This document shows positions 2,950-21,995 of a stretch of 44,975 nucleotides of DNA, one piece after another. This DNA comes from a virus, in UHGV virus genome UHGV-0285350; one strand, given 5' to 3'. A program made the position numbers and the translations under genes. The notes beneath the pieces are model-generated. The model was not told the DNA's origin and ran no database searches. It saw only the letters and a list, made by a program, of their open reading frames with translations. Each line of letters opens with the position of its first letter. Within the stretch, counting starts at the first letter, position 1.

Positions 2950-3603
2950 CTATCCTTTCTTGAAATCGAAGTTGCCAGCAGTGGCCTGAAAGGTTCCTCC
3001 TGCCTTGAAAGCTATGTCTCCGTTAGCGGTGACAGCAATATTTTCCCCTTTAACATTGATGTTGTTGGTTGATTTGACGTTAACACTCCCTCCTGCATTC
3101 ACGATTACATCAGCCGGACCAATGATATATATCTGCCCGGACTCATTCATGCCAATCCTTGAGCCTGCTGCCGTATTGGCAATTTCATAGCCGCCACCAG
3201 CAGTTCGTACTTCAAGAATATTGTTGCGGTGAATAACGAAGTCTTTCGTTGCTGAGATTTGGGGGCGGGGAGGTGCTCCATCTACTTCCGGCGGCGTCCA
3301 GCCGTTGCCTTTGCCAGATGCTTCTGGTGCAACGTTTGGAATTCCTCCCGGTGCATCCTGAGCGGCACCAACTATCATTGGGCGTCTGGTGTCTATTCGA
3401 CCGTTAACATCTAAATAAGGAAACTCTACCCAGACCAGGTCACCTTTGACTGTGGGTACAAAAGCGTTTCCGATGGGTAACAGGTATTCCGCCCAGGGTA
3501 GATCGTCATCAGGAACGCCATTCCAGTCAGGTAAAACACGGACTTGAGCACGCATAAGCCCTGCCGGGTGCACAGTTCCAACAATTTGCGCTCTACGCTT
3601 CAT
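2950..3603 (-). CDS. gpV / gp5-type baseplate spike protein (OB-fold N-domain plus Gly/Asn-rich beta-helix-like C-region)
   Basis: N-terminus IVGTVHPAGLMRAQVRVLPDWNGVPDDDLPWAEYLLPIGNAFVPTVKGDLVWVEF fits the phage baseplate-assembly-V OB-fold pattern; C-terminal repeats (IVNAGGSVNVKSTNNINVKGENIAVTANGDIAFKAGG). Confidence 0.6.
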   Translation of the reverse strand: MKRRAQIVGTVHPAGLMRAQVRVLPDWNGVPDDDLPWAEYLLPIGNAFVPTVKGDLVWVEFPYLDVNGRIDTRRPMIVGAAQDAPGGIPNVAPEASGKGNGWTPPEVDGAPPRPQISATKDFVIHRNNILEVRTAGGGYEIANTAAGSRIGMNESGQIYIIGPADVIVNAGGSVNVKSTNNINVKGENIAVTANGDIAFKAGGTFQATAGNFDFKKG

Positions 3604-4580
3604 TTGTTCGGCACTCCCAATATCATTCGTGTTGTGTAGCCTACGCGGTCTTCAAAGTGCGCAACATTTTTTACTATCAGCTTACGGGGCATTGATTCAT
3701 CAATGCGGTTTTCCTGGTCATAGCGGTATACGATAATCTCTATCACCATCCCCGGTTTTATATCAGGATTGCCTGCGACTTCTATATCCATTTTGGGGAC
3801 GAGAGACAGCTGCATATTGCGAAGAGTTTCCATATCAGAGTCGGATATATAACGCACTGGGAGTGAGCTATCGCCATATTCGACGTAGCCATCGGTCATG
3901 GAATACCCAACAAAACGATATTGATTCTTTGCTGTTGTCGCATGTTCCTGTTGGAGTAGGCGCATTTTGGACAAAGTGTATTCTGCTTTAGGGTTATTCC
4001 CCTCGTAGGTAAATGATGGCGTTTGCTTCATCAGATCAGCCAGGGTGTAAAAGTTAAATTCCCCCCGGCATACCCAACATAATGCACCTTTGTCTCGCGC
4101 TATCTCCGAAAGCATTTTTGACGGTTTGTCACCGGCATTCAGATGATATGTAACTGCGCGTTTTAGCACGCTGCTGGTAATTTTAAGCTTGCCGGAATAT
4201 GCCTTGAATATAGCGTCTGGTGTTTTGTTGGTATGTAAATTTGTGCGCGGGGAGGGGATCTTAAACCTGCGCACGTCTTCACTGACAGCAATAACGGTAA
4301 CAACATCACCAGCCAGCATTGCAGACGTAACAAAGAAATCTGTTTTAAAAGTGCCTGCATTACCGTTTGGATCGCCCATTTCAGCCACCAGCGATGCACC
4401 GTATTTGGCTTTCCAGTCATCAATTACGGTGCCGGTAGCGTCATGAATTTCCAGTTTTAGCAAAGGGGCTTTGAGGCTGGTTTTTTCTACATATACTGCG
4501 GTAAAAATCCAGTCTCGTGGCACTTTGTTATCGTTAATGAGCACTGACTGTAGAAAATATTGTTGTAACTCCTGGGCCAC
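3600..4580 (-). CDS. hypothetical protein, possibly baseplate hub (gpD/gp27-like) partner of the adjacent spike
   Basis: 326-aa ORF translationally coupled (overlapping stop/start) to the spike gene; hub assignment is positional inference only. Confidence 0.3.
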   Translation of the reverse strand: MAQELQQYFLQSVLINDNKVPRDWIFTAVYVEKTSLKAPLLKLEIHDATGTVIDDWKAKYGASLVAEMGDPNGNAGTFKTDFFVTSAMLAGDVVTVIAVSEDVRRFKIPSPRTNLHTNKTPDAIFKAYSGKLKITSSVLKRAVTYHLNAGDKPSKMLSEIARDKGALCWVCRGEFNFYTLADLMKQTPSFTYEGNNPKAEYTLSKMRLLQQEHATTAKNQYRFVGYSMTDGYVEYGDSSLPVRYISDSDMETLRNMQLSLVPKMDIEVAGNPDIKPGMVIEIIVYRYDQENRIDESMPRKLIVKNVAHFEDRVGYTTRMILGVPNK

Positions 4581-4583
4581 TTA

Positions 4584-5351
4584 TCACCCCATAGATATCG
4601 AGGTTTCGGTAATAATACGTTTTGCGTCCAACTCCCATGCTGTGATCACGTCTGCAATCACACTTATCGGCGCTTGTGTGGCATAAATACGCTCTTCTCC
4701 AATTGGTGCTGAAACATCCGTAAAGCCGACTTCTTTGGCATCCTGTATCGAGCAAATCAGCGGGACCGGGACACGAACAAGGTGAGTGGTTGCTTCAAAT
4801 TGTGTACCTGTCATCAGGCGAAGCCGTGCGCCCAGCGAATTACACATCAGACTCATGGTCGCTTTATCAGTTGCCATTAACGTGACGTCATACGTCAGAA
4901 TGGCCTGGGTGTATTCCAGTTCTGCTAAAGGCATTCCGGTATCCGGTTCGCAAAAACTGGCTACTTTTTTGCGGTCAATCTGCTGATCATCGTTGATATA
5001 ATTGATATCCATATTGCGTGAGATATTGACCAGGGGGAGAGCATCCCGGTTAATGTTCTGGTTTTCAGGTTTTCTCCCTTGCCCGGCATTTGCGCGACGA
5101 ACTGCTTTAAGAAACTCGATCGCATTGTCGAAACGGGCCACATAGACACGCTCTGCTGGTGGACGATTCAGGAATGACGCAAAGCGTTTTTCTTCCGGCG
5201 CGGGGGCCACCAGTAAGATATCAGAAAAAATGTTGCTGATTAGCGTCGCAAACGCGTTATCCACGTTTTCAAAGCCCGTGGTCTGGAATTTTCCTGTGCG
5301 TGAGGTTTGCCATTCACCTGTTCGCGCCAGGAGGGTTTTATTTGAAGTCAT
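4584..5351 (-). CDS. hypothetical protein (member of leftward 4-gene module)
   Basis: 255-aa ORF, 3-nt gap to downstream gene and overlapping upstream gene; no motif recognised. Confidence 0.5.
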   Translation of the reverse strand: MTSNKTLLARTGEWQTSRTGKFQTTGFENVDNAFATLISNIFSDILLVAPAPEEKRFASFLNRPPAERVYVARFDNAIEFLKAVRRANAGQGRKPENQNINRDALPLVNISRNMDINYINDDQQIDRKKVASFCEPDTGMPLAELEYTQAILTYDVTLMATDKATMSLMCNSLGARLRLMTGTQFEATTHLVRVPVPLICSIQDAKEVGFTDVSAPIGEERIYATQAPISVIADVITAWELDAKRIITETSISMG

Positions 5352-6139
5352 TCGATCACTCCGTTTTGAGTCGTATCAAAATTCCTGGCAGGTATGCAGT
5401 AGTAAAGCGAACCAACATGCTGTGTGCCGTAGCTAAAAATACGGTGCACGTACCACCAGCGGCGCGCTACGCCGTTTACCATCTCTTCATTCCATTCAAG
5501 AATTGAGCCGACGGGGACGTTATTTGCTGCAATACGCAGAATCAGAACATCATCGGTTAAGCCATCCTGCTCACCGTCTGCGTCAATCGCATGGAAAGAG
5601 TCACGCCCGTCAGGGTTATCCAGCACATAAACGATTTCAGGTTCCTGGTAAGTCAGTTCGCGTTGGTTGTTATCCAGTTCGGTGAATGACTCTTCTCCTG
5701 TTTCGTCGCTGACTACCCCATATGTGCCAACATCTGGTCGATATAAGAGAGCCTGAAACGCGTCTGGGCTGGATTCAATAATCAGCATCCAGTCTGCGCG
5801 GATTTGGTCGTTAAAGGCTTTATGCCCGTTATAGCGTGCTTTTAACTGTGGAGTCGGTTCTCTGCCAGCCAGGGAAGATGGAAGTATGGCTATATCTGAT
5901 TCGCCAGCATCCGGAGTAAGGCCACCGTTGCTATCAGCAAAATTATCATGGCTATCAGCTTTGGCGGCGGGTTGCTCTTCCAGAATGCTGAATGAATCCG
6001 AACCGGTATTGCCATGTTCCGGCGCGCCTCCTGCATTCGCTTCAATCGGCGCTGGCGTTTCTCTCTGCGTGCTGTCATGTTCTGACTCCTTACTTGCCAG
6101 GTTTGCATCGTCAGCAAACCATTCGTCAAAACGGCCCAT
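5348..6139 (-). CDS. hypothetical protein with acidic, low-complexity N-terminal half
   Basis: First gene of the leftward module; start placed at ATG (MGRFDEW...) 6 nt after AGGA; track ORF begins at TTG 6151. Confidence 0.5.
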   Translation of the reverse strand: MGRFDEWFADDANLASKESEHDSTQRETPAPIEANAGGAPEHGNTGSDSFSILEEQPAAKADSHDNFADSNGGLTPDAGESDIAILPSSLAGREPTPQLKARYNGHKAFNDQIRADWMLIIESSPDAFQALLYRPDVGTYGVVSDETGEESFTELDNNQRELTYQEPEIVYVLDNPDGRDSFHAIDADGEQDGLTDDVLILRIAANNVPVGSILEWNEEMVNGVARRWWYVHRIFSYGTQHVGSLYYCIPARNFDTTQNGVIE

Positions 6140-6233
6140 AAGCATCCTCAAAGGTCGATCTGTCAGGTATCGAAAGGAAGATTTTCTGGAGATTGTGATT
6201 TTGGATGAAGGAGGGGGAATTCATAAAATGCAC

Positions 6234-6301: not shown

Positions 6302-6604
6302 ATGACCAAAAAAATTAACATAAAGGATTTCAGGGATGCGTGGCTTGATGATTTTTTTGAATTTTCAACACCACATAGAAAGATACCTCCTGATATTCAT
6401 ATGACATTGTCACGGAAGTTGGACATTATCAATGCCGCAACTACCTGTAAGGATTTAAGATCACCACCAGGTAATCGGTATGAGGAACTGTCAGGGAAGC
6501 TAAATGGCTATTCATCAGTAAGGGTGAATAAGCAATATAGGTTAATTTTTAAGTGGGTTAACGGAAAGGCCGAGGACTTGTATCTCGACCCTCACAAATA
6601 CTAA
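6302..6604 (+). CDS. higB: type II toxin HigB (RelE/ParE superfamily)
   Basis: C-terminal LSGKLNGYSSVRVNKQYRLIFKWVNGKAEDLYLDPHKY aligns with HigB LKGDREGYWSITVRANWRITFQFINGDAYILNYEDYH; toxin-first order with HTH antitoxin directly downstream. Confidence 0.8.
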   Translation: MTKKINIKDFRDAWLDDFFEFSTPHRKIPPDIHMTLSRKLDIINAATTCKDLRSPPGNRYEELSGKLNGYSSVRVNKQYRLIFKWVNGKAEDLYLDPHKY

Positions 6605-6674
6605 AACAGATACCCGGTTACGGACCGGGTTCTGACCAGAGTCCACTTAATACGCACGCTAGTAAGGGCAAAAA

Positions 6675-7013
6675 ATGAAACAGGCAACCAGAAAACCGAC
6701 GACCGTAGGTGATATCCTGCTGTACGAATACCTGGAGCCGTTAGAGCTGAAGATCAACGAGTTGGCAGAAATACTTCATGTTCATCGTAACACCGTAAGT
6801 GCTCTTGTTAATAATAATCGTAAGCTAACGATGGATATGGCATATCGCCTGGCAAAAGCATTCGATACTTCTGTAGATTTTTGGATTAATCTTCAGACCG
6901 CAGTAGACCTGTGGGAAGTCGAAAATGATATGCGCGTTCAGGAAGAGTTAAGTCGTATCAATACTGCTGAAAAATTTATTTCTCAGCGGAACCTGAATAA
7001 AAAAGCAGCCTGA
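6675..7013 (+). CDS. higA: antitoxin HigA (XRE-family HTH, VapI type)
   Basis: N-terminal HTH LAEILHVHRNTVSALVNNNRKLTMDMAYRLAKAFDTSVDFWINLQ typical of HigA/VapI antidote proteins; immediately downstream of higB. Confidence 0.8.
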   Translation: MKQATRKPTTVGDILLYEYLEPLELKINELAEILHVHRNTVSALVNNNRKLTMDMAYRLAKAFDTSVDFWINLQTAVDLWEVENDMRVQEELSRINTAEKFISQRNLNKKAA

Positions 7014-7069
7014 TATAGTAAAACACATACAAAAAGCCCACTTAGCAAGTGGGCTTTCCTTTGTAATTA

Positions 7070-7372
7070 ATGAACATTAAACCTATCCGTACAGAACAAG
7101 ATTATGAGGCCGCACTGCGTGCGGTCGAACCGATGTTCGATAACGAGGAGTACGAGAAAAAACATTACCCAATTGAGCCACCATCACCTATTGAGGCCAT
7201 TAAATTCCGTATGGAACAGCAAGGGCTGACCGTGAAGGATCTGGAACCGGCGATTGGTAAGTCAAATCGTGTTTACGAAGTGCTAAATGGGACACGAAAT
7301 TTGACGTTACCTATGATTCGCCGTTTACATTCCCAGTTTGGCATTCCTCTTGAAAGCTTGGTTGGTATTTGA
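7070..7372 (+). CDS. second HTH (XRE-type, C-terminal HTH) antitoxin-like regulator
   Basis: C-terminal LTVKDLEPAIGKSNRVYEVLNGTRNLTLPMIRRLHSQFGIPLESL resembles HigA-family antitoxins with C-terminal HTH; no cognate toxin directly upstream. Confidence 0.6.
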   Translation: MNIKPIRTEQDYEAALRAVEPMFDNEEYEKKHYPIEPPSPIEAIKFRMEQQGLTVKDLEPAIGKSNRVYEVLNGTRNLTLPMIRRLHSQFGIPLESLVGI

Positions 7373-7434
7373 GTTTGGCGGTCTGGATGACCGCTATTTT
7401 CATAAAATAGATATTAGAAATCACGGTAGTTTAT

Positions 7435-8163
7435 ATGAATACAGATTCATCAACAGAAAAATTGACTGAAAATGATCTAATCAAAGTATCTTTTGGAGAT
7501 GCCATAAAAGACAAGCTTTTTAATAAAGTGTTTGCATATATATTCATTTCTTTTCTAATTATTAATTGGAAAGATATACTAATATTGATGAAGTCAAAGG
7601 ATGATATCCTATATACTTTATCTGTAACATTTGTTGGAGGTAAGATTCCTCTAGTTTATGAAGGCGTTTTGTCTCCTTGGTTTTATCATTTTTGCTTGCC
7701 ATTTATTTTTGGAATTATTGCATCAATTGCAGCTCCGATTGTCACTCTTTGCGTATCAAAGCTAACAAGTAAAATATATACAGAGATAAGGTATTTGGAT
7801 GCCGACATGGATCAAAATAAAAGAAAGGCGTTGCAAATAAAAGAGACTGAAATAATAAAAAGTATTAATGATACACAATTCAACAAAAGAATTATGGATG
7901 AAAATAAAAATGAACTTGAGAGATTGCTTAGGCAGCAAAAAGAGATTATGGCGGCAATAAAATTATTATATGATGATGTTGGAGTTATCATTGAGCTTTT
8001 TAAAAGTAGAGGGGTTGGTATTGACTCCCCAGAAAAGTTATATGATTTTGTAATGGCAATAAAGAAGACTTCGCTTTATAATGGTGATCATGATTTTAAT
8101 AAATTGGTTGCTGATATTTCAAATTTATTTGATAAAACGGAAATTGATTTTTCAAAAAGATGA
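7435..8163 (+). CDS. hypothetical membrane protein (2 predicted TM helices plus Lys/Glu-rich coiled-coil tail) in strongly AT-rich DNA
   Basis: Hydrophobic segments VFAYIFISFLIINW and FYHFCLPFIFGIIASIAAPIVTLCV; region about 7380-8200 is markedly AT-rich relative to flanks. Confidence 0.6.
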   Translation: MNTDSSTEKLTENDLIKVSFGDAIKDKLFNKVFAYIFISFLIINWKDILILMKSKDDILYTLSVTFVGGKIPLVYEGVLSPWFYHFCLPFIFGIIASIAAPIVTLCVSKLTSKIYTEIRYLDADMDQNKRKALQIKETEIIKSINDTQFNKRIMDENKNELERLLRQQKEIMAAIKLLYDDVGVIIELFKSRGVGIDSPEKLYDFVMAIKKTSLYNGDHDFNKLVADISNLFDKTEIDFSKR

Positions 8164-8196
8164 AAGCCTAGCCTAGGCAGCTAGGCTATGTGTGGT

Positions 8197-9390
8197 TTAT
8201 GCTTTTTTTACATACTCCATGAACATTTTTTCAGCTTGTGCTGGTGGTGTTCCAGCCATGACAAGCGCATCAATGAACGCCTGCTTCTTCAGTGCGAACT
8301 GATCGGCAAGGCGTTGCTGAAGCTCCTTGTTTTTCTGTTTCTCACGTTGCAAGGCCGCTTCTTTTGCTGCCGCCCGTTTTTTCTGTGCATCTGACAACTT
8401 TCTGGCCTTGGTCAATTGGTCACGTAGTTTGTCGATCTTGCCGTTGTCCTTTGCCAGTTTTGTACTTAAAGCTGCCTGGCGCTTCTGATAGAGTCTCCAT
8501 TCGCGTTTGGCGGCTTCAACGTTCGTTTTACTGCTACGATTGCGATTAAACTCCTTCTCGTCTTCTTTTGAGAAGTGTTTGGTTGTACGTCGGCGATCGT
8601 CACCAAATGCAATTTGCGTTGCAGCCTTTTGTAGTGCACGAGCAATACTCATTTGCCAACTTGCGGACTGTAACCGCGTCATTGAGTGGATCACGTGTTT
8701 ACAGGCGACGCCTTGTAGCTTAGGGTTACGAACTTTTGGATAGGCGTATTCTTTTGGCGGGGCCAGGGCAAAGTTACCCGCAGTAGCGATGTAACGATAC
8801 CAGTATTGATGACGACCACAGTCACAATCGAAAGACACTCGCCCGGCGCACAGTGATTTAGTGATTTTCAGAGCTGATTTATCGTCTTCTGCGATGTCAT
8901 CGACCATCTGATCCCATTCTTCAAAGCGTATCCGGACGATATGGTGCTGGTGGACGGATATATCCGATGCTTCTACGCGGATATTAATCACGTTGTGGCG
9001 AAGAGATACGGGTGTAGCTCTTTTGATACCAGATCCGTCATCCACGGCGTTATTTGCACGCTTAATATCGATTGCCTGGCTGGATGCCACCAGCTGGGCG
9101 TATGTGATGCCAGCCGTCTTGCTGTCATATTTTTCGCGCGTTTTACTCCGTAGCTTTTCGAAACCTTTCAGGTCGTCTCGCGTGAAGAACGTGCCGCCTT
9201 TTTTCTTCCCTAACTTGAGAATATCTTCGGCGGATTTGTTCCTCAGTCTACCTGGCGTCAGAGTCCGGTGAGCTTGTCGGCGCTTACGGGTTTGTTCTTT
9301 CCTGATAAGATCGAATAAACGCGTGAAGTCCTTAGAGGACAGACCGTCAGTGATATAGCGCCCGTCCTGGTTTTTCAGGAAATCAGGCAT
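8197..9390 (-). CDS. hypothetical protein with SWIM-type zinc-finger motif and Lys/Ala/Gln-rich coiled-coil C-terminus
   Basis: CDCGRHQYWYRY...GVACKHV fits CxC-xn-CxH (SWIM) pattern; 397 aa; stop convergent with the membrane-protein gene. Confidence 0.55.
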   Translation of the reverse strand: MPDFLKNQDGRYITDGLSSKDFTRLFDLIRKEQTRKRRQAHRTLTPGRLRNKSAEDILKLGKKKGGTFFTRDDLKGFEKLRSKTREKYDSKTAGITYAQLVASSQAIDIKRANNAVDDGSGIKRATPVSLRHNVINIRVEASDISVHQHHIVRIRFEEWDQMVDDIAEDDKSALKITKSLCAGRVSFDCDCGRHQYWYRYIATAGNFALAPPKEYAYPKVRNPKLQGVACKHVIHSMTRLQSASWQMSIARALQKAATQIAFGDDRRRTTKHFSKEDEKEFNRNRSSKTNVEAAKREWRLYQKRQAALSTKLAKDNGKIDKLRDQLTKARKLSDAQKKRAAAKEAALQREKQKNKELQQRLADQFALKKQAFIDALVMAGTPPAQAEKMFMEYVKKA

Positions 9391-9712
9391 TTTCTATCTC
9401 CGGTTCCGCGCTCGCGTAATCACGGATCTTGTTCCTCAGCCATGCCACATCAGGAAGAGTTAACGTGGTCCCGGCGGGCATTTCTTCCATTTCTGACTCA
9501 TGGCCCACCAGCACCCGGAATACCCAGCGCAAATCTGCATTGCCATACGCCCTGTAGGCTGCAAGGTCTGAACGATATACTTCATCAATCTTTATCGTGT
9601 ACTGGAAATTATCAGAGTGATACTCCGATACCCGCTTAATCATTTCCTGGTGAAACAGCGCACGAAAAATATCGTCTTCAATGTACCTATCGTCGAGTCT
9701 GCTATAGCCCAT
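9383..9712 (-). CDS. hypothetical protein (upstream partner of SWIM protein, overlapping start/stop)
   Basis: 109-aa ORF whose stop overlaps the start of 8197..9390; no motif recognised. Confidence 0.5.
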   Translation of the reverse strand: MGYSRLDDRYIEDDIFRALFHQEMIKRVSEYHSDNFQYTIKIDEVYRSDLAAYRAYGNADLRWVFRVLVGHESEMEEMPAGTTLTLPDVAWLRNKIRDYASAEPEIENA

Positions 9713-9905
9713 AACAAAGCCTCTCAGTCATAACCTGGGGGAAACTGTATGCAGGGTGTGAAATGCGAGAAACAGACAGGCCACCAGTTCAGGGGGATGT
9801 GGTTCATAAATCCCCTCACTGGTGACAAGTGACTTTCATTAATCTTTATGCGGGGGCCAGCTTCATTTGCTGGCATTAGATTAAAAATTAAACGGAGTGA
9901 ATGAC

Positions 9906-10040
9906 ATGGATGTTATCTTCGAATTATTAATGCTAATTGATCTGTTTATGAACGCTTCATTGACCACTCAAATACTCGCGTCAATATTTTTGTTACTCTT
10001 CTACCTGGTATTGAGGGAGTTAACAAAGCTACTAATGTGA
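9906..10040 (+). CDS. possible small hydrophobic peptide (44 aa, one TM-like segment)
   Basis: ATG after GGAGTG; translation MDVIFELLMLIDLFMNASLTTQILASIFLLLFYLVLRELTKLLM*; AT-rich; below the track's 60-aa cutoff, coordinates from my own reading. Confidence 0.3.
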   Translation: MDVIFELLMLIDLFMNASLTTQILASIFLLLFYLVLRELTKLLM

Positions 10041-10694
10041 TCAAAGTATCACGGTATCTTCATCAACTTCTTTCCCAGCCAGTGACTTTGGCTGGGAGGT
10101 GCCTGCTTTAACTTTTTCATGCCCAATAATGGACAGGAACGAAGCGAGTATGCCTGTTTTTTGCTCTTTCTCGACTGTACCGGTCATCTGCTCTACATAA
10201 TCTGCACTGGCAACGTTGTGGTATACGGTCGCGTAGCAACACAGGATCATCAGAATATGCTCCGGCCTGATATCCTGCCAGTTCACCCTGTAGACTTCTT
10301 CTCCGTTACCGTTGTATTCGGTATCAACGATAGAGTCGGGGATTTCGAAAGCACCTTTGTTATTTTGCGGCAGGGATAATAGTTTCTGGAGTTTTAACTC
10401 TCTGTATCTTTCCATCCCAACGATGATTGCTGCTCTACCATCGGCATGACGGGTCTTGAGAGTCACCTGGCTTGCTCCGGTGCCAGCGGAGATCGTTGGC
10501 GTAATTTCGTCTACTAGAACCTTAAATTTGCTTTTCCGCAGGGCTGCTATAGCTGGAGGAATTTTTTGCTTTTGCTCCAATGCTGACGCGGGAAGGGGTT
10601 TTACTTCGTTAATAATGAGAGCACCGTCTTTCAGTATTGCAGTGAGCATTTGAGGCTTGCTGGTGGTCAGGCTGAATATTGCGATCTTTTCCAT
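10041..10694 (-). CDS. hypothetical protein
   Basis: Start placed at ATG (MEKIAIFSL...) preceded by GGAGGAAGG SD; track ORF extends to 10736. Confidence 0.55.
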   Translation of the reverse strand: MEKIAIFSLTTSKPQMLTAILKDGALIINEVKPLPASALEQKQKIPPAIAALRKSKFKVLVDEITPTISAGTGASQVTLKTRHADGRAAIIVGMERYRELKLQKLLSLPQNNKGAFEIPDSIVDTEYNGNGEEVYRVNWQDIRPEHILMILCCYATVYHNVASADYVEQMTGTVEKEQKTGILASFLSIIGHEKVKAGTSQPKSLAGKEVDEDTVIL

Positions 10695-10721
10695 TTTCCT
10701 TCCTCCACGGATGACGGATAC

Positions 10722-10745
10722 AAAAAAAGGCCGCACATGGCGGCC
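10722..10745 (-). terminator. intrinsic-terminator-like hairpin on minus strand (ggccgc-acatg-gcggcc followed by T7) just upstream of the 10041..10694 gene
   Basis: Stem-loop and adjacent A7 on + strand (T7 on -) read from sequence. Confidence 0.35.
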
Positions 10746-10962
10746 TGCTTTGGCGTTATGACTCCCTACCGCGCTTCGGCTGAAAGTTAATCGTCAAAAG
10801 AACCTTCAACGGGAGCCGTTAGCGCGATGGATTATGTGCAGTTTGTGATTTCCAAAATAGTGTCAACCACTTTTTGTGGATTTTATTTTTTGACCGAAAT
10901 TTGGCCTAAATCATGTTGATGTAGTTAATTGTTTTTATAACATAAAACTTCATTTTGTTTAC

Positions 10963-11586
10963 ATGAAGGATGGTGTAGTGAAGTTAAGGGTTTTAGGGGC
11001 CGCGCTCGCGGCTATGTTGGGATGCGTATCTGCTAATACTGCCAATGCAACTGCGTTACCTGCACAATTCAGGGCAGGGCAGCAGGTTATGAATAACGCT
11101 GGTGGGGATCATTCACAAGCGGCCATTATGGACTTTTGCAAGAGGGAGGGCATTCCATTACGGCCTGTTGGAACTCAGTTTATTGGTAAAACTGACTTTT
11201 GCGTTTTTGCATATACAGCATATCTGACGGGCAAAGCTATAACAAAAACAGGTTACTCAACCAAAGATACTCTTTCCAGATTAAGTCAGGGATGGCAGCA
11301 ATTCGAAGTGTATCGCCAGCAAGGATTAGGTGAGTTATTGCAACCACTTTTTATGCTTGCATTGGTGCCCGAGGGGCAGCAATTTTTGGTTAAAAAGGGA
11401 ATGCTTCGCCAAAGTGATATTGCCGGGTTCGATAGCATGATGGCTTATGAGCGCAAACTAACCGAGCAGCGAAATAAAAAACCATCTGCTTCATGTGTGC
11501 AAAGTAAAACAGCAGAATACAGTGCAGTAGCCGGGCCTTTAGCCAAACAAATGGCAGAGCAATGGTGTAAAAAATACGGGCAATAA
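10963..11586 (+). CDS. hypothetical secreted protein (N-terminal signal peptide)
   Basis: N-terminus KLRVLGAALAAMLGCVSANTANA is signal-peptide-like; true start may be GTG at about 10978. Confidence 0.55.
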   Translation: MKDGVVKLRVLGAALAAMLGCVSANTANATALPAQFRAGQQVMNNAGGDHSQAAIMDFCKREGIPLRPVGTQFIGKTDFCVFAYTAYLTGKAITKTGYSTKDTLSRLSQGWQQFEVYRQQGLGELLQPLFMLALVPEGQQFLVKKGMLRQSDIAGFDSMMAYERKLTEQRNKKPSASCVQSKTAEYSAVAGPLAKQMAEQWCKKYGQ

Positions 11587-11606
11587 GTTACGCAGCGGAG
11601 GCAGAA

Positions 11607-11999
11607 TTGAAAAGATTGGCTATTGCTTTACTGGCGTCTTTCCCTTTGATCGCGAGCGCCGGAAATTTACAAGTTAAGTGCGGTCGGTTTGATATAAAAA
11701 TCTATCCGGATGCCATATTTCTGAATGGGAATAAGGTTGATAACGCACACCGAAAAACTGAATCTGACGTAATGAGCTATGTGTTCCAGGAGTATGCGGA
11801 GATGGGGGGAACTTATACGCTGTACTCGCTGGATGTTCCTTCTCGCGGTGATATGACATTATCCCATCAATGGCAGAACGCCGATGGAGAAGCTCTGCGC
11901 GAGGTTAAAATAGAAAAATGTGGCACTTTCCATTCTTTTAAAGGGAAAGCGCCAAATGTTAAATCTGTGCTTGAAAAACAGCGCACAGGTGAGCTTTAA
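11607..11999 (+). CDS. hypothetical secreted/periplasmic protein (signal peptide)
   Basis: MKRLAIALLASFPLIASA signal peptide with AxA cleavage motif; no other motif recognised. Confidence 0.55.
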   Translation: MKRLAIALLASFPLIASAGNLQVKCGRFDIKIYPDAIFLNGNKVDNAHRKTESDVMSYVFQEYAEMGGTYTLYSLDVPSRGDMTLSHQWQNADGEALREVKIEKCGTFHSFKGKAPNVKSVLEKQRTGEL

Positions 12000-21640: not shown

Positions 21641-21816
21641 TGCGTGTGGCATGTATCGGCTTGTTACCGTACCCGACTCGTTTTTGGGCTTCTGCGCTAA
21701 TTGCAAAGCCACATGTACTGATGGCTGACAACATCATCCCGGCACCAAATCGCCGCCATACCGGTATTGCAGCGGCACGACGTGCAGCAAAGAAACGCAG
21801 GAGAGCAAAGCGATGA
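21640..21816 (+). CDS. possible small Arg/Lys-rich protein (58 aa)
   Basis: ATG overlaps upstream stop (TAATG) and is preceded by AAAGGAGGTGA SD; stop overlaps next ATG; not in track (<60 aa). Confidence 0.45.
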   Translation: MRVACIGLLPYPTRFWASALIAKPHVLMADNIIPAPNRRHTGIAAARRAAKKRRRAKR

Positions 21817-21995
21817 AAAACCGTAAGGCAAAAATTCTGTTAGCTCGCAGAAACGGTGTTGGGGTCTGGCGATGGTTGAGGATTAGTAACAGACGAGTGA
21901 GGTTGACGGGGTGTTGCGGGGTGATGTTGCACAGCTGTTGCAAAAAGCCCAGCGCGGCGCAAAACCGCTGGAAGAATCACACTAACGCAAAGTAA
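21813..21995 (+). CDS. possible small Cys-rich basic protein (60 aa)
   Basis: ATGA overlap with upstream ORF; CCGVMLHSCC cluster. Confidence 0.35.
   Translation: MKNRKAKILLARRNGVGVWRWLRISNRRVRLTGCCGVMLHSCCKKPSAAQNRWKNHTNAK

Follow-up and report, generated by a model that had tools for sequence, protein, structure and literature searches.

A gene pair related to P1 genes 26 and 25

The window analysed here is a 44,975-nucleotide (nt) stretch of viral DNA (UHGV-0285350), and the feature under study is a pair of genes at positions 8197-9712 on its minus strand. The pair consists of two open reading frames (ORFs) with ATG starts: an upstream ORF of 109 amino acids (aa) at 9383-9712 and a downstream ORF of 397 aa at 8197-9390 (stop codon included), which are homologues of genes 26 and 25, respectively, of phage P1 and are referred to by these names below. 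Reading of the sequence places the stop codon of gene 26 within the start of gene 25, in an 8-nt overlap ATGCCTGA (9383-9390), and a Shine-Dalgarno sequence, GGAG, 7 nt 5' of the gene 25 ATG (9398-9401). This arrangement fits translational coupling of the two genes, as had been proposed, together with the same two ORFs, in an initial annotation of this DNA. That annotation had further placed the pair inside an accessory region, convergent to a membrane gene. The gene pair does converge on an AT-rich ORF (35% guanine plus cytosine, GC) encoding a 242-aa membrane protein (7435-8163), and a GC-rich hairpin that is terminator-like on both strands was located between the convergent genes by a terminator scan (8165-8188). 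However, genes 26 and 25 are core genes that border the accessory region rather than lying inside it.

The 1,516 bp of the gene pair exhibit 98.9% nucleotide identity to orf75/orf74 of phage D6, a P1-like phage-plasmid whose annotation describes orf75 as 'similar to P1 gene 26' and orf74 as 'similar to P1 gene 25'. On the basis of sequence, genes 26 and 25 of the window are the D6 copies of long-known P1 tail-assembly genes, and are in this respect already known. The main outcome of the analysis is, therefore, a corrected annotation: the locus represents a core tail/baseplate gene pair and not defence cargo.

The 109-aa protein shares 41% aa identity with P1 gp26 over 96 residues, matches the solved P1 Gp26 chains (PDB 9ay5_S/9vzk; phmmer E-value 1e-16) and belongs to PHROG 1269 ('baseplate wedge subunit'; phrog_1269, 2e-36). 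These matches identify it as a homologue of gp26 and hence as a member of a structurally placed baseplate family. In the 2026 whole-virion study of P1, gp26 is a six-copy 'plug' by which the wedges of the baseplate are held to its central hub (PMC12810830), and the window protein is accordingly assigned to the inner baseplate as a 'plug' or wedge clamp, equivalent to gp53 of T4. The latter equivalence is taken from published HHpred analysis and model fitting of P1 gp26; in the window protein, the Pfam family Phage_gp53 (PF11246) stayed under threshold, scoring 13.6 bits where the cut-off is 21 (E-value 0.053). The initial annotation had suggested that the pair, as an accessory operon, could have a defence, anti-defence or DNA-end-binding function. 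So clear a match to a known structural protein, a solved component of the P1 baseplate, is incompatible with a role in defence or anti-defence, whereas binding of DNA ends stays conceivable. Its interpretation overall was, therefore, only partly right.

The 397-aa protein is 99.5% identical to the product of D6 orf74 and 56% identical to P1 gp25 (BLASTP over 359 aa, E-value 9e-138), while PHROG 1722 (tail protein; phrog_1722, 4e-197) covers residues 2-396. It is a homologue of gp25 and belongs to the P1 'tail stability' protein family, as judged from these alignments.

Architecture of gp25 and its SWIM-like core

The gp25 family comprises 446 representatives at 50% identity, of which 125 diverse members (24-46% identical to the query) were used to assess conservation and charge. 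Both ends of the protein are basic and helical, and they flank a SWIM-type Cys2-Cys-His module whose loop of 38 residues is conserved. Residues 1-119 (9034-9390) form the basic and mostly helical N-terminal region, in which AlphaFold2 predicts helices at 19-39, 46-59, 71-87 and 97-112 and where residues 1-90 carry a net charge of +12. The SWIM-like core (residues 120-262; 8605-9033) is predicted to contain a three-stranded sheet, the strand bearing the CxC motif, a helix, the 38-residue loop and a helix bearing the CKH motif. The remainder (residues 263-397; 8200-8604) is rich in Lys, Ala, Gln and Glu, helical and coiled-coil-like, with AlphaFold2 helices at 291-314, 318-330, 334-378 and 383-396, the end being a short helix-Gly-helix. 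These last 135 residues consist to 65% of A/K/E/Q/R/L and have a net charge of +17, in line with the Lys/Ala/Gln-rich C-terminus recognised initially; the annotation of P1 likewise notes that gp25 resembles myosin heavy chain. The net charge of the complete window protein is about +36 and its isoelectric point (pI) 10.07, and the pI exceeds 9 in all 125 representatives, with a median of 10.0.

The last ~30 residues of the family alignment contain a conserved helix-Gly/loop-helix element, which reads F-[IV]-D-A-L-x3-G-x5-A-E in the D6 clade and 'eeAi..FAk.n.l....v.dmAk' in distant members. A weak match to the SAP DNA-binding motif was obtained in one family member (E-value 0.0028). From its sequence pattern, the C-terminal element could act as a partner- or DNA-binding tail.

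Within the core, the motif C189-D-C191-G-R-H ... G227-V-A-C230-K-H232-V (codons 8826-8818 and 8703-8695) provides the CxCxnCxH ligand signature in the form C189-x-C191-x38-C230-x-H232. The segment at 8695-8826 thereby encodes the putative zinc ligands C189, C191, C230 and H232 along with a loop containing the invariant residues E214, P218, N222 and G227. All four ligands are invariant in 30 homologues with identities down to 44%, and they are among ten positions that are invariant in the 125 diverse members (G94, C189, C191, E214, P218, N222, G227, C230, K231 and H232). Since these Cys and His residues are retained in every homologue compared, including highly divergent ones, the motif singled out in the initial annotation is not there by chance.

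The distance from CxC to CKH is 36-43 residues across the gp25 family, mostly 37-38 and 38 in the window protein, and the spacer includes an invariant signature of its own, E-x3-P-K-x2-N-x4-G. Classical SWIM fingers have a shorter spacer. It may be argued on this ground that CxC...CxH is no zinc-binding motif at all, the cysteines being structural or fortuitous and gp25 a plain coiled-coil protein, the more so as the Pfam SWIM family (PF04434) did not match the window gp25 or its isolated core at E-values up to 1. SWIM was the Pfam family matched by most of the 125 relatives, yet by only six of them and weakly (best E-value 0.0024), and scans of gp25 against Pfam, NCBIfam and PADLOC gave no significant match. 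Set against this, the four ligands and K231 are absolutely invariant at overall identities of 24-46%, and SWIM proteins were returned independently by the fold search: Foldseek comparison with viral models (BFVD) matched small phage proteins, two of which are named 'SWIM-type domain-containing', and the predicted fold of gp25 resembles that of a solved SWIM domain. We consider it very unlikely that the motif serves no zinc site. Conservation and predicted fold together support a divergent SWIM-type Cys2-Cys-His module with putative zinc binding. No pertinent report emerged when the literature was searched for SWIM fingers in phage tails, and the new point here is the combination, in gp25, of an invariant SWIM-like zinc-finger core with a very strong positive charge.

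Gene order, the late operon and the junction of genes 25 and 7

An initial scan of viral contigs for the gp25 family returned only close P1-like loci, whereas a repeat seeded with a distant member returned 80 loci on contigs of ~60-95 kb. A gp26-like gene (PHROG 1269) lies immediately upstream of the gp25 gene in 52 of 68 distant loci, and the next gene downstream is a conserved one of ~169 aa (phrog_4597) in 57 of 69. These loci usually run from terminase and a Pro-like protease through two unknowns to gp26, gp25 and the 169-aa gene, followed by major capsid protein, sheath and PmgG-like tube initiator; the order 26-25 is also that of P1, D6 and Acinetobacter phage ABMM1. No member of the gp25 family was encountered outside a morphogenesis cluster among the 80 distant loci sampled. 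The 169-aa protein was also considered as a homologue of the stopper gp7, for which hhalign gave a probability of only 4%; its gene is, therefore, called merely a positional counterpart of gene 7.

These gene orders bear directly on the proposal that the pair is accessory cargo for defence, anti-defence or superinfection exclusion. The pair does adjoin a genuine cargo cassette, composed of HigBA, a helix-turn-helix (HTH) protein resembling PD-Lambda-2_B and a membrane ORF, and both genes were rated non-essential in a CRISPR interference (CRISPRi) screen of P1. However, hundreds of P1-related morphogenesis clusters keep both genes in the same order, the structure of gp26 in the baseplate has been solved, and amber mutants in genes 25 and 26 are, according to papers citing Walker and Walker, morphogenesis-defective. 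Furthermore, PADLOC returned no match for gp26 and, for gp25, only a match in the coiled-coil region (E-value 0.007) with no qualifying stretch. The exclusively morphogenetic context and the lack of a PADLOC model match rule out a defence or anti-defence role for practical purposes, and such a role is the least probable of the alternatives weighed here.

According to the annotation of P1, the late promoter LP26 drives a six-gene operon, 26-25-7-24-6-5. The rest of this ancestral operon is present on the minus strand of the window at 2950-6151, as established from the D6 annotation and from matches to solved P1 chains: gene 7 at 5348-6151 (Gp7, 9ums_B), gene 24 at 4584-5351 (Gp24, 8jan_y), gene 6 at 3600-4580 (Gp6, 9vzk) and gene 5 at 2950-3603 (D6 annotation). 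In P1, gp7 is the connector stopper, gp24 the tail terminator, gp6 the hub and gp5 the spike (PMC12810830). Between genes 25 and 7 lies the plus-strand cargo cassette (6302-8163), which encodes the toxin HigB (PF05015, 4e-35), the antitoxin HigA (TIGR02607, 8e-30), a short HTH protein and the AT-rich 242-aa ORF. The HTH protein (100 aa; 7070-7372) matches PD-Lambda-2_B, a defence protein of 402 aa, in only its N-terminal ~120 residues (3e-32), while the 242-aa ORF encodes two transmembrane segments and a coiled coil (phrog_8191). Genes 26 and 25 look like an isolated two-gene operon because this cassette splits the ancestral one. A plus-strand cassette with this content is present at the same site in D6, and P1 has no insert there. 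Among 78 P1-like viral loci, 45 have genes 25 and 7 side by side and 32 have them 0.3-2.9 kb apart, which makes the junction a recurrent cargo hotspot. The inserts, mostly in the D6 clade, measure about 0.3, 0.4, 0.7-0.9, 1.6, 1.9, 2.1-2.2 and 2.9 kb. The 25|7 junction thus emerges as a site of repeated cargo insertion in D6-like phage-plasmids, and the plausible candidate for defence or exclusion is the cargo cassette, not the pair of genes 25 and 26.

Eight annotated late promoters of P1 yielded a consensus, AAGTGACTT-N4-TAnnnT. Only one site in the window fits it with zero mismatches: a P1-type late promoter, AAGTGACTT TCAT TAATCT, on the plus strand (9827-9845), which lies 115 nt upstream of gene 26 yet faces away from it, the -22 palindrome being common to both strands. 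A P1-type late promoter for gene 26 was not found on the minus strand, where no -10 element follows the shared palindrome. Read-through from mat (10041-10736) into genes 26-25 is possible. The plus-strand promoter faces a 47-aa hydrophobic ORF (9897-10040, plus strand; D6 orf77), a position equivalent to that of LPpmgL in P1. On the minus strand at 10728-10746, a strong hairpin rich in GC precedes a T-run (AGGCCGCCATGTGCGGCCT TTTTTTG), downstream of a TTGACA box and just before the ribosome-binding site of mat; this leader hairpin may be an attenuator or an antitermination target.

The window at large has a mosaic make-up. Its first part, positions 1-21,632, shares 98.4% identity with phage D6 and includes a differing segment at 10963-11999 (plus strand) where two ORFs (207 aa and 130 aa) with signal-peptide-like N-termini take the place of the simB-like gene of D6. 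Positions 22,014-44,975 (GC 55-60%) had no match in the phage database and are 95-96% identical to the middle/late region of Mu-like prophages, mostly in E. coli chromosomes. This part runs through GemA, Mor, terminase, DUF935 portal, sheath, tape measure, protein N and baseplate, and the match begins inside the Mu-like element and not at a transposon end. The junction, at about 21,795-21,980, consists of ~185 bp common to both parents, and no plasmid record spans it. The mosaic reflects either genuine recombination or a mis-join at a repeat during assembly.

A possible role for gp25 at the head-tail joint

Following the studies of 2023-2026 that used cryo-electron microscopy (cryo-EM), gp25 is the sole product of the P1 operon 26-25-7-24-6-5 without a structural or molecular assignment. 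The gp25 family profile retrieved no P1 gp25 chain from the PDB sequences, the only matches being coiled-coil noise (e.g. haemagglutinin HA2 and tropomyosin), whereas P1 chains of Gp26, Gp7, Gp24 and Gp6 are all present there. The 2026 whole-virion study, which models nearly all P1 proteins, does not mention gp25 (PMC12810830), and it is absent from both published baseplate models. In contrast, the P1 proteome of 2022 includes two gp25 peptides from CsCl-purified virions, in which the six-copy gp26 and PmgA went undetected; its authors found no HHpred match above 50% and raised a cofactor role for gp25.

Genetic evidence is available for both genes of the pair. Amber mutants of P1 define gene 25 as a 'tail stability' gene, and papers citing Walker and Walker report that amber mutants in 25/26 are defective in morphogenesis. 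A CRISPRi screen of 2023 recorded a plating efficiency of ~0.1 for genes 25 and 26, which were rated non-essential, and scored genes 7, 24, 6 and 5 as essential. The mild effect on 25/26 alongside essential downstream genes speaks against strong polarity of 26/25, or for an internal promoter. For genes 25 and 26, the outcome of the screen is at odds with the amber-mutant literature.

The best explanation of the locus as a whole is that its genes are the first two cistrons of a P1-type late tail/baseplate operon in a D6-like phage-plasmid, with gp25 acting as set out below; taken together with this role, we hold it tentatively, at slightly less than an even chance. gp25 would not be built symmetrically into the tail but would act as a low-copy factor at the head-tail joining or tail-completion step. 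Its zinc module and its charge of +36 would bind the end of the packaged DNA, or else the acidic channel of the neck or tube, such that heads closed by the stopper and tails capped by the terminator become stably joined, and gp25 would leave with the DNA upon infection. Of the operon's 'tail stability' genes, the two besides gene 25 specify gp7, the head stopper, and gp24, the tail terminator, i.e. both faces of the head-tail joint. A comparable neighbourhood exists in T4, where the head-closure gene gp4, the DNA end protector gp2 and the terminator gp3 lie beside gp53 and gp5. The specific mechanism, that of a low-copy, DNA- or channel-binding completion factor, is a good deal more doubtful than the assignment of the operon, and we regard it as possible at best.

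Several observations weigh against this interpretation. The classical phenotype of gene 25 is described, at second hand, as a tail defect and not as a defect of the head or DNA. CRISPRi of P1 gene 25 reduced plating just ~10-fold and had it scored as non-essential, and a protein as basic as gp25 could stick to virions non-specifically, so that two peptides are no proof of its incorporation. The long spacer of the core and the subthreshold result for Pfam SWIM, in the window protein as in its isolated core, count on the same side. Finally, gp25 was tried as a homologue of T4 gp2 and rejected: the hhalign probability was 0.2%, T4 gp2 has no Cys residues, and it is absent among the BFVD matches.

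The absence of gp25 from all solved P1 structures, including either baseplate model, could equally be expected of a non-virion chaperone or catalyst that is needed for stable tails or baseplates and is discarded before or at their completion. The SWIM module and helical tail would then be protein-binding surfaces, in a manner comparable to the proposed roles of T4 gp51, gp26 and gp57A. The weak mass spectrometry signal, the cofactor role raised by the proteome authors and the tight coupling to gp26 in nearly all relatives would suit such a factor. SWIM domains of eukaryotes, moreover, often mediate protein-protein contacts. The detection of gp25 in CsCl-purified virions, when six-copy gp26 and PmgA were not detected, is a point against it. 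To our knowledge, a conserved net charge near +30 is also unusual for phage assembly chaperones and more like that of nucleic-acid binders. An assembly factor of this kind is about as probable as the completion factor, possible but less likely than not.

A further alternative would place gp25 in the tail lumen or baseplate interior, travelling with the tape measure protein Sit, stabilising the extended tail from inside and being ejected first. The cryo-EM maps do not resolve Sit or other contents of the lumen (PMC12810830), the lumen of the P1 tube is described as electronegative, which would accommodate a strongly basic protein with long helices, and the gene adjoins those of the plug, hub and spike. 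However, in distant relatives the gp25 gene resides among head/connector genes, far from the tape-measure gene, and PmgB has already been proposed as the tape-measure chaperone. A lumen protein is, in our assessment, improbable.

Returning to the completion factor at the head-tail joint, a more pointed version can be formulated by analogy, in which gp25-family proteins form an unrecognised class of zinc-dependent, virion-associated proteins of the DNA end or neck channel in P1-like myophages; these SWIM-fingered functional analogues of T4 gp2 would leave the particle together with the DNA. We consider this version rather unlikely, yet it would account for the absence of gp25, alone among the products of the 26-5 operon, from every P1 cryo-EM model. 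If true, gp25-family proteins would seal or escort the genome terminus and be needed for stable head-tail joining, possibly while shielding DNA ends from RecBCD. The invariant SWIM-type core, the family pI near 10 and the fixed synteny with the plug gene provide handles for placing gp25 in P1.

T4 gp2 is similarly not a symmetric building block of the virion, and gp25 may be likened to it in this regard. The likeness is one of analogy only: both proteins are basic and both are encoded beside genes of the gp53 type, of head closure or stopper, and of the terminator, whereas T4 gp2 is devoid of cysteines and of detectable homology to gp25, whose reported phenotype concerns tails. With respect to SWIM zinc fingers (PF04434; e.g. 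human ZSWIM8, PDB 9rwz), gp25 differs in its longer spacer with an invariant signature of its own, and within the literature searched a phage morphogenesis operon is not a described setting for SWIM proteins. The closest comparison is with P1 itself. The window gp26 is 16 residues shorter than P1 gp26, with which it shares its PHROG and the identity given above. The gp25 sequences part near the C-terminus, the BLASTP alignment extending over residues 1-356 only, and a 2,045-bp opposite-strand cassette intervenes before gene 7, which follows gene 25 directly in P1 and is still present in the window. For its part, the window orthologue of gp25 keeps every motif residue of its P1 counterpart and its place directly after gene 26.

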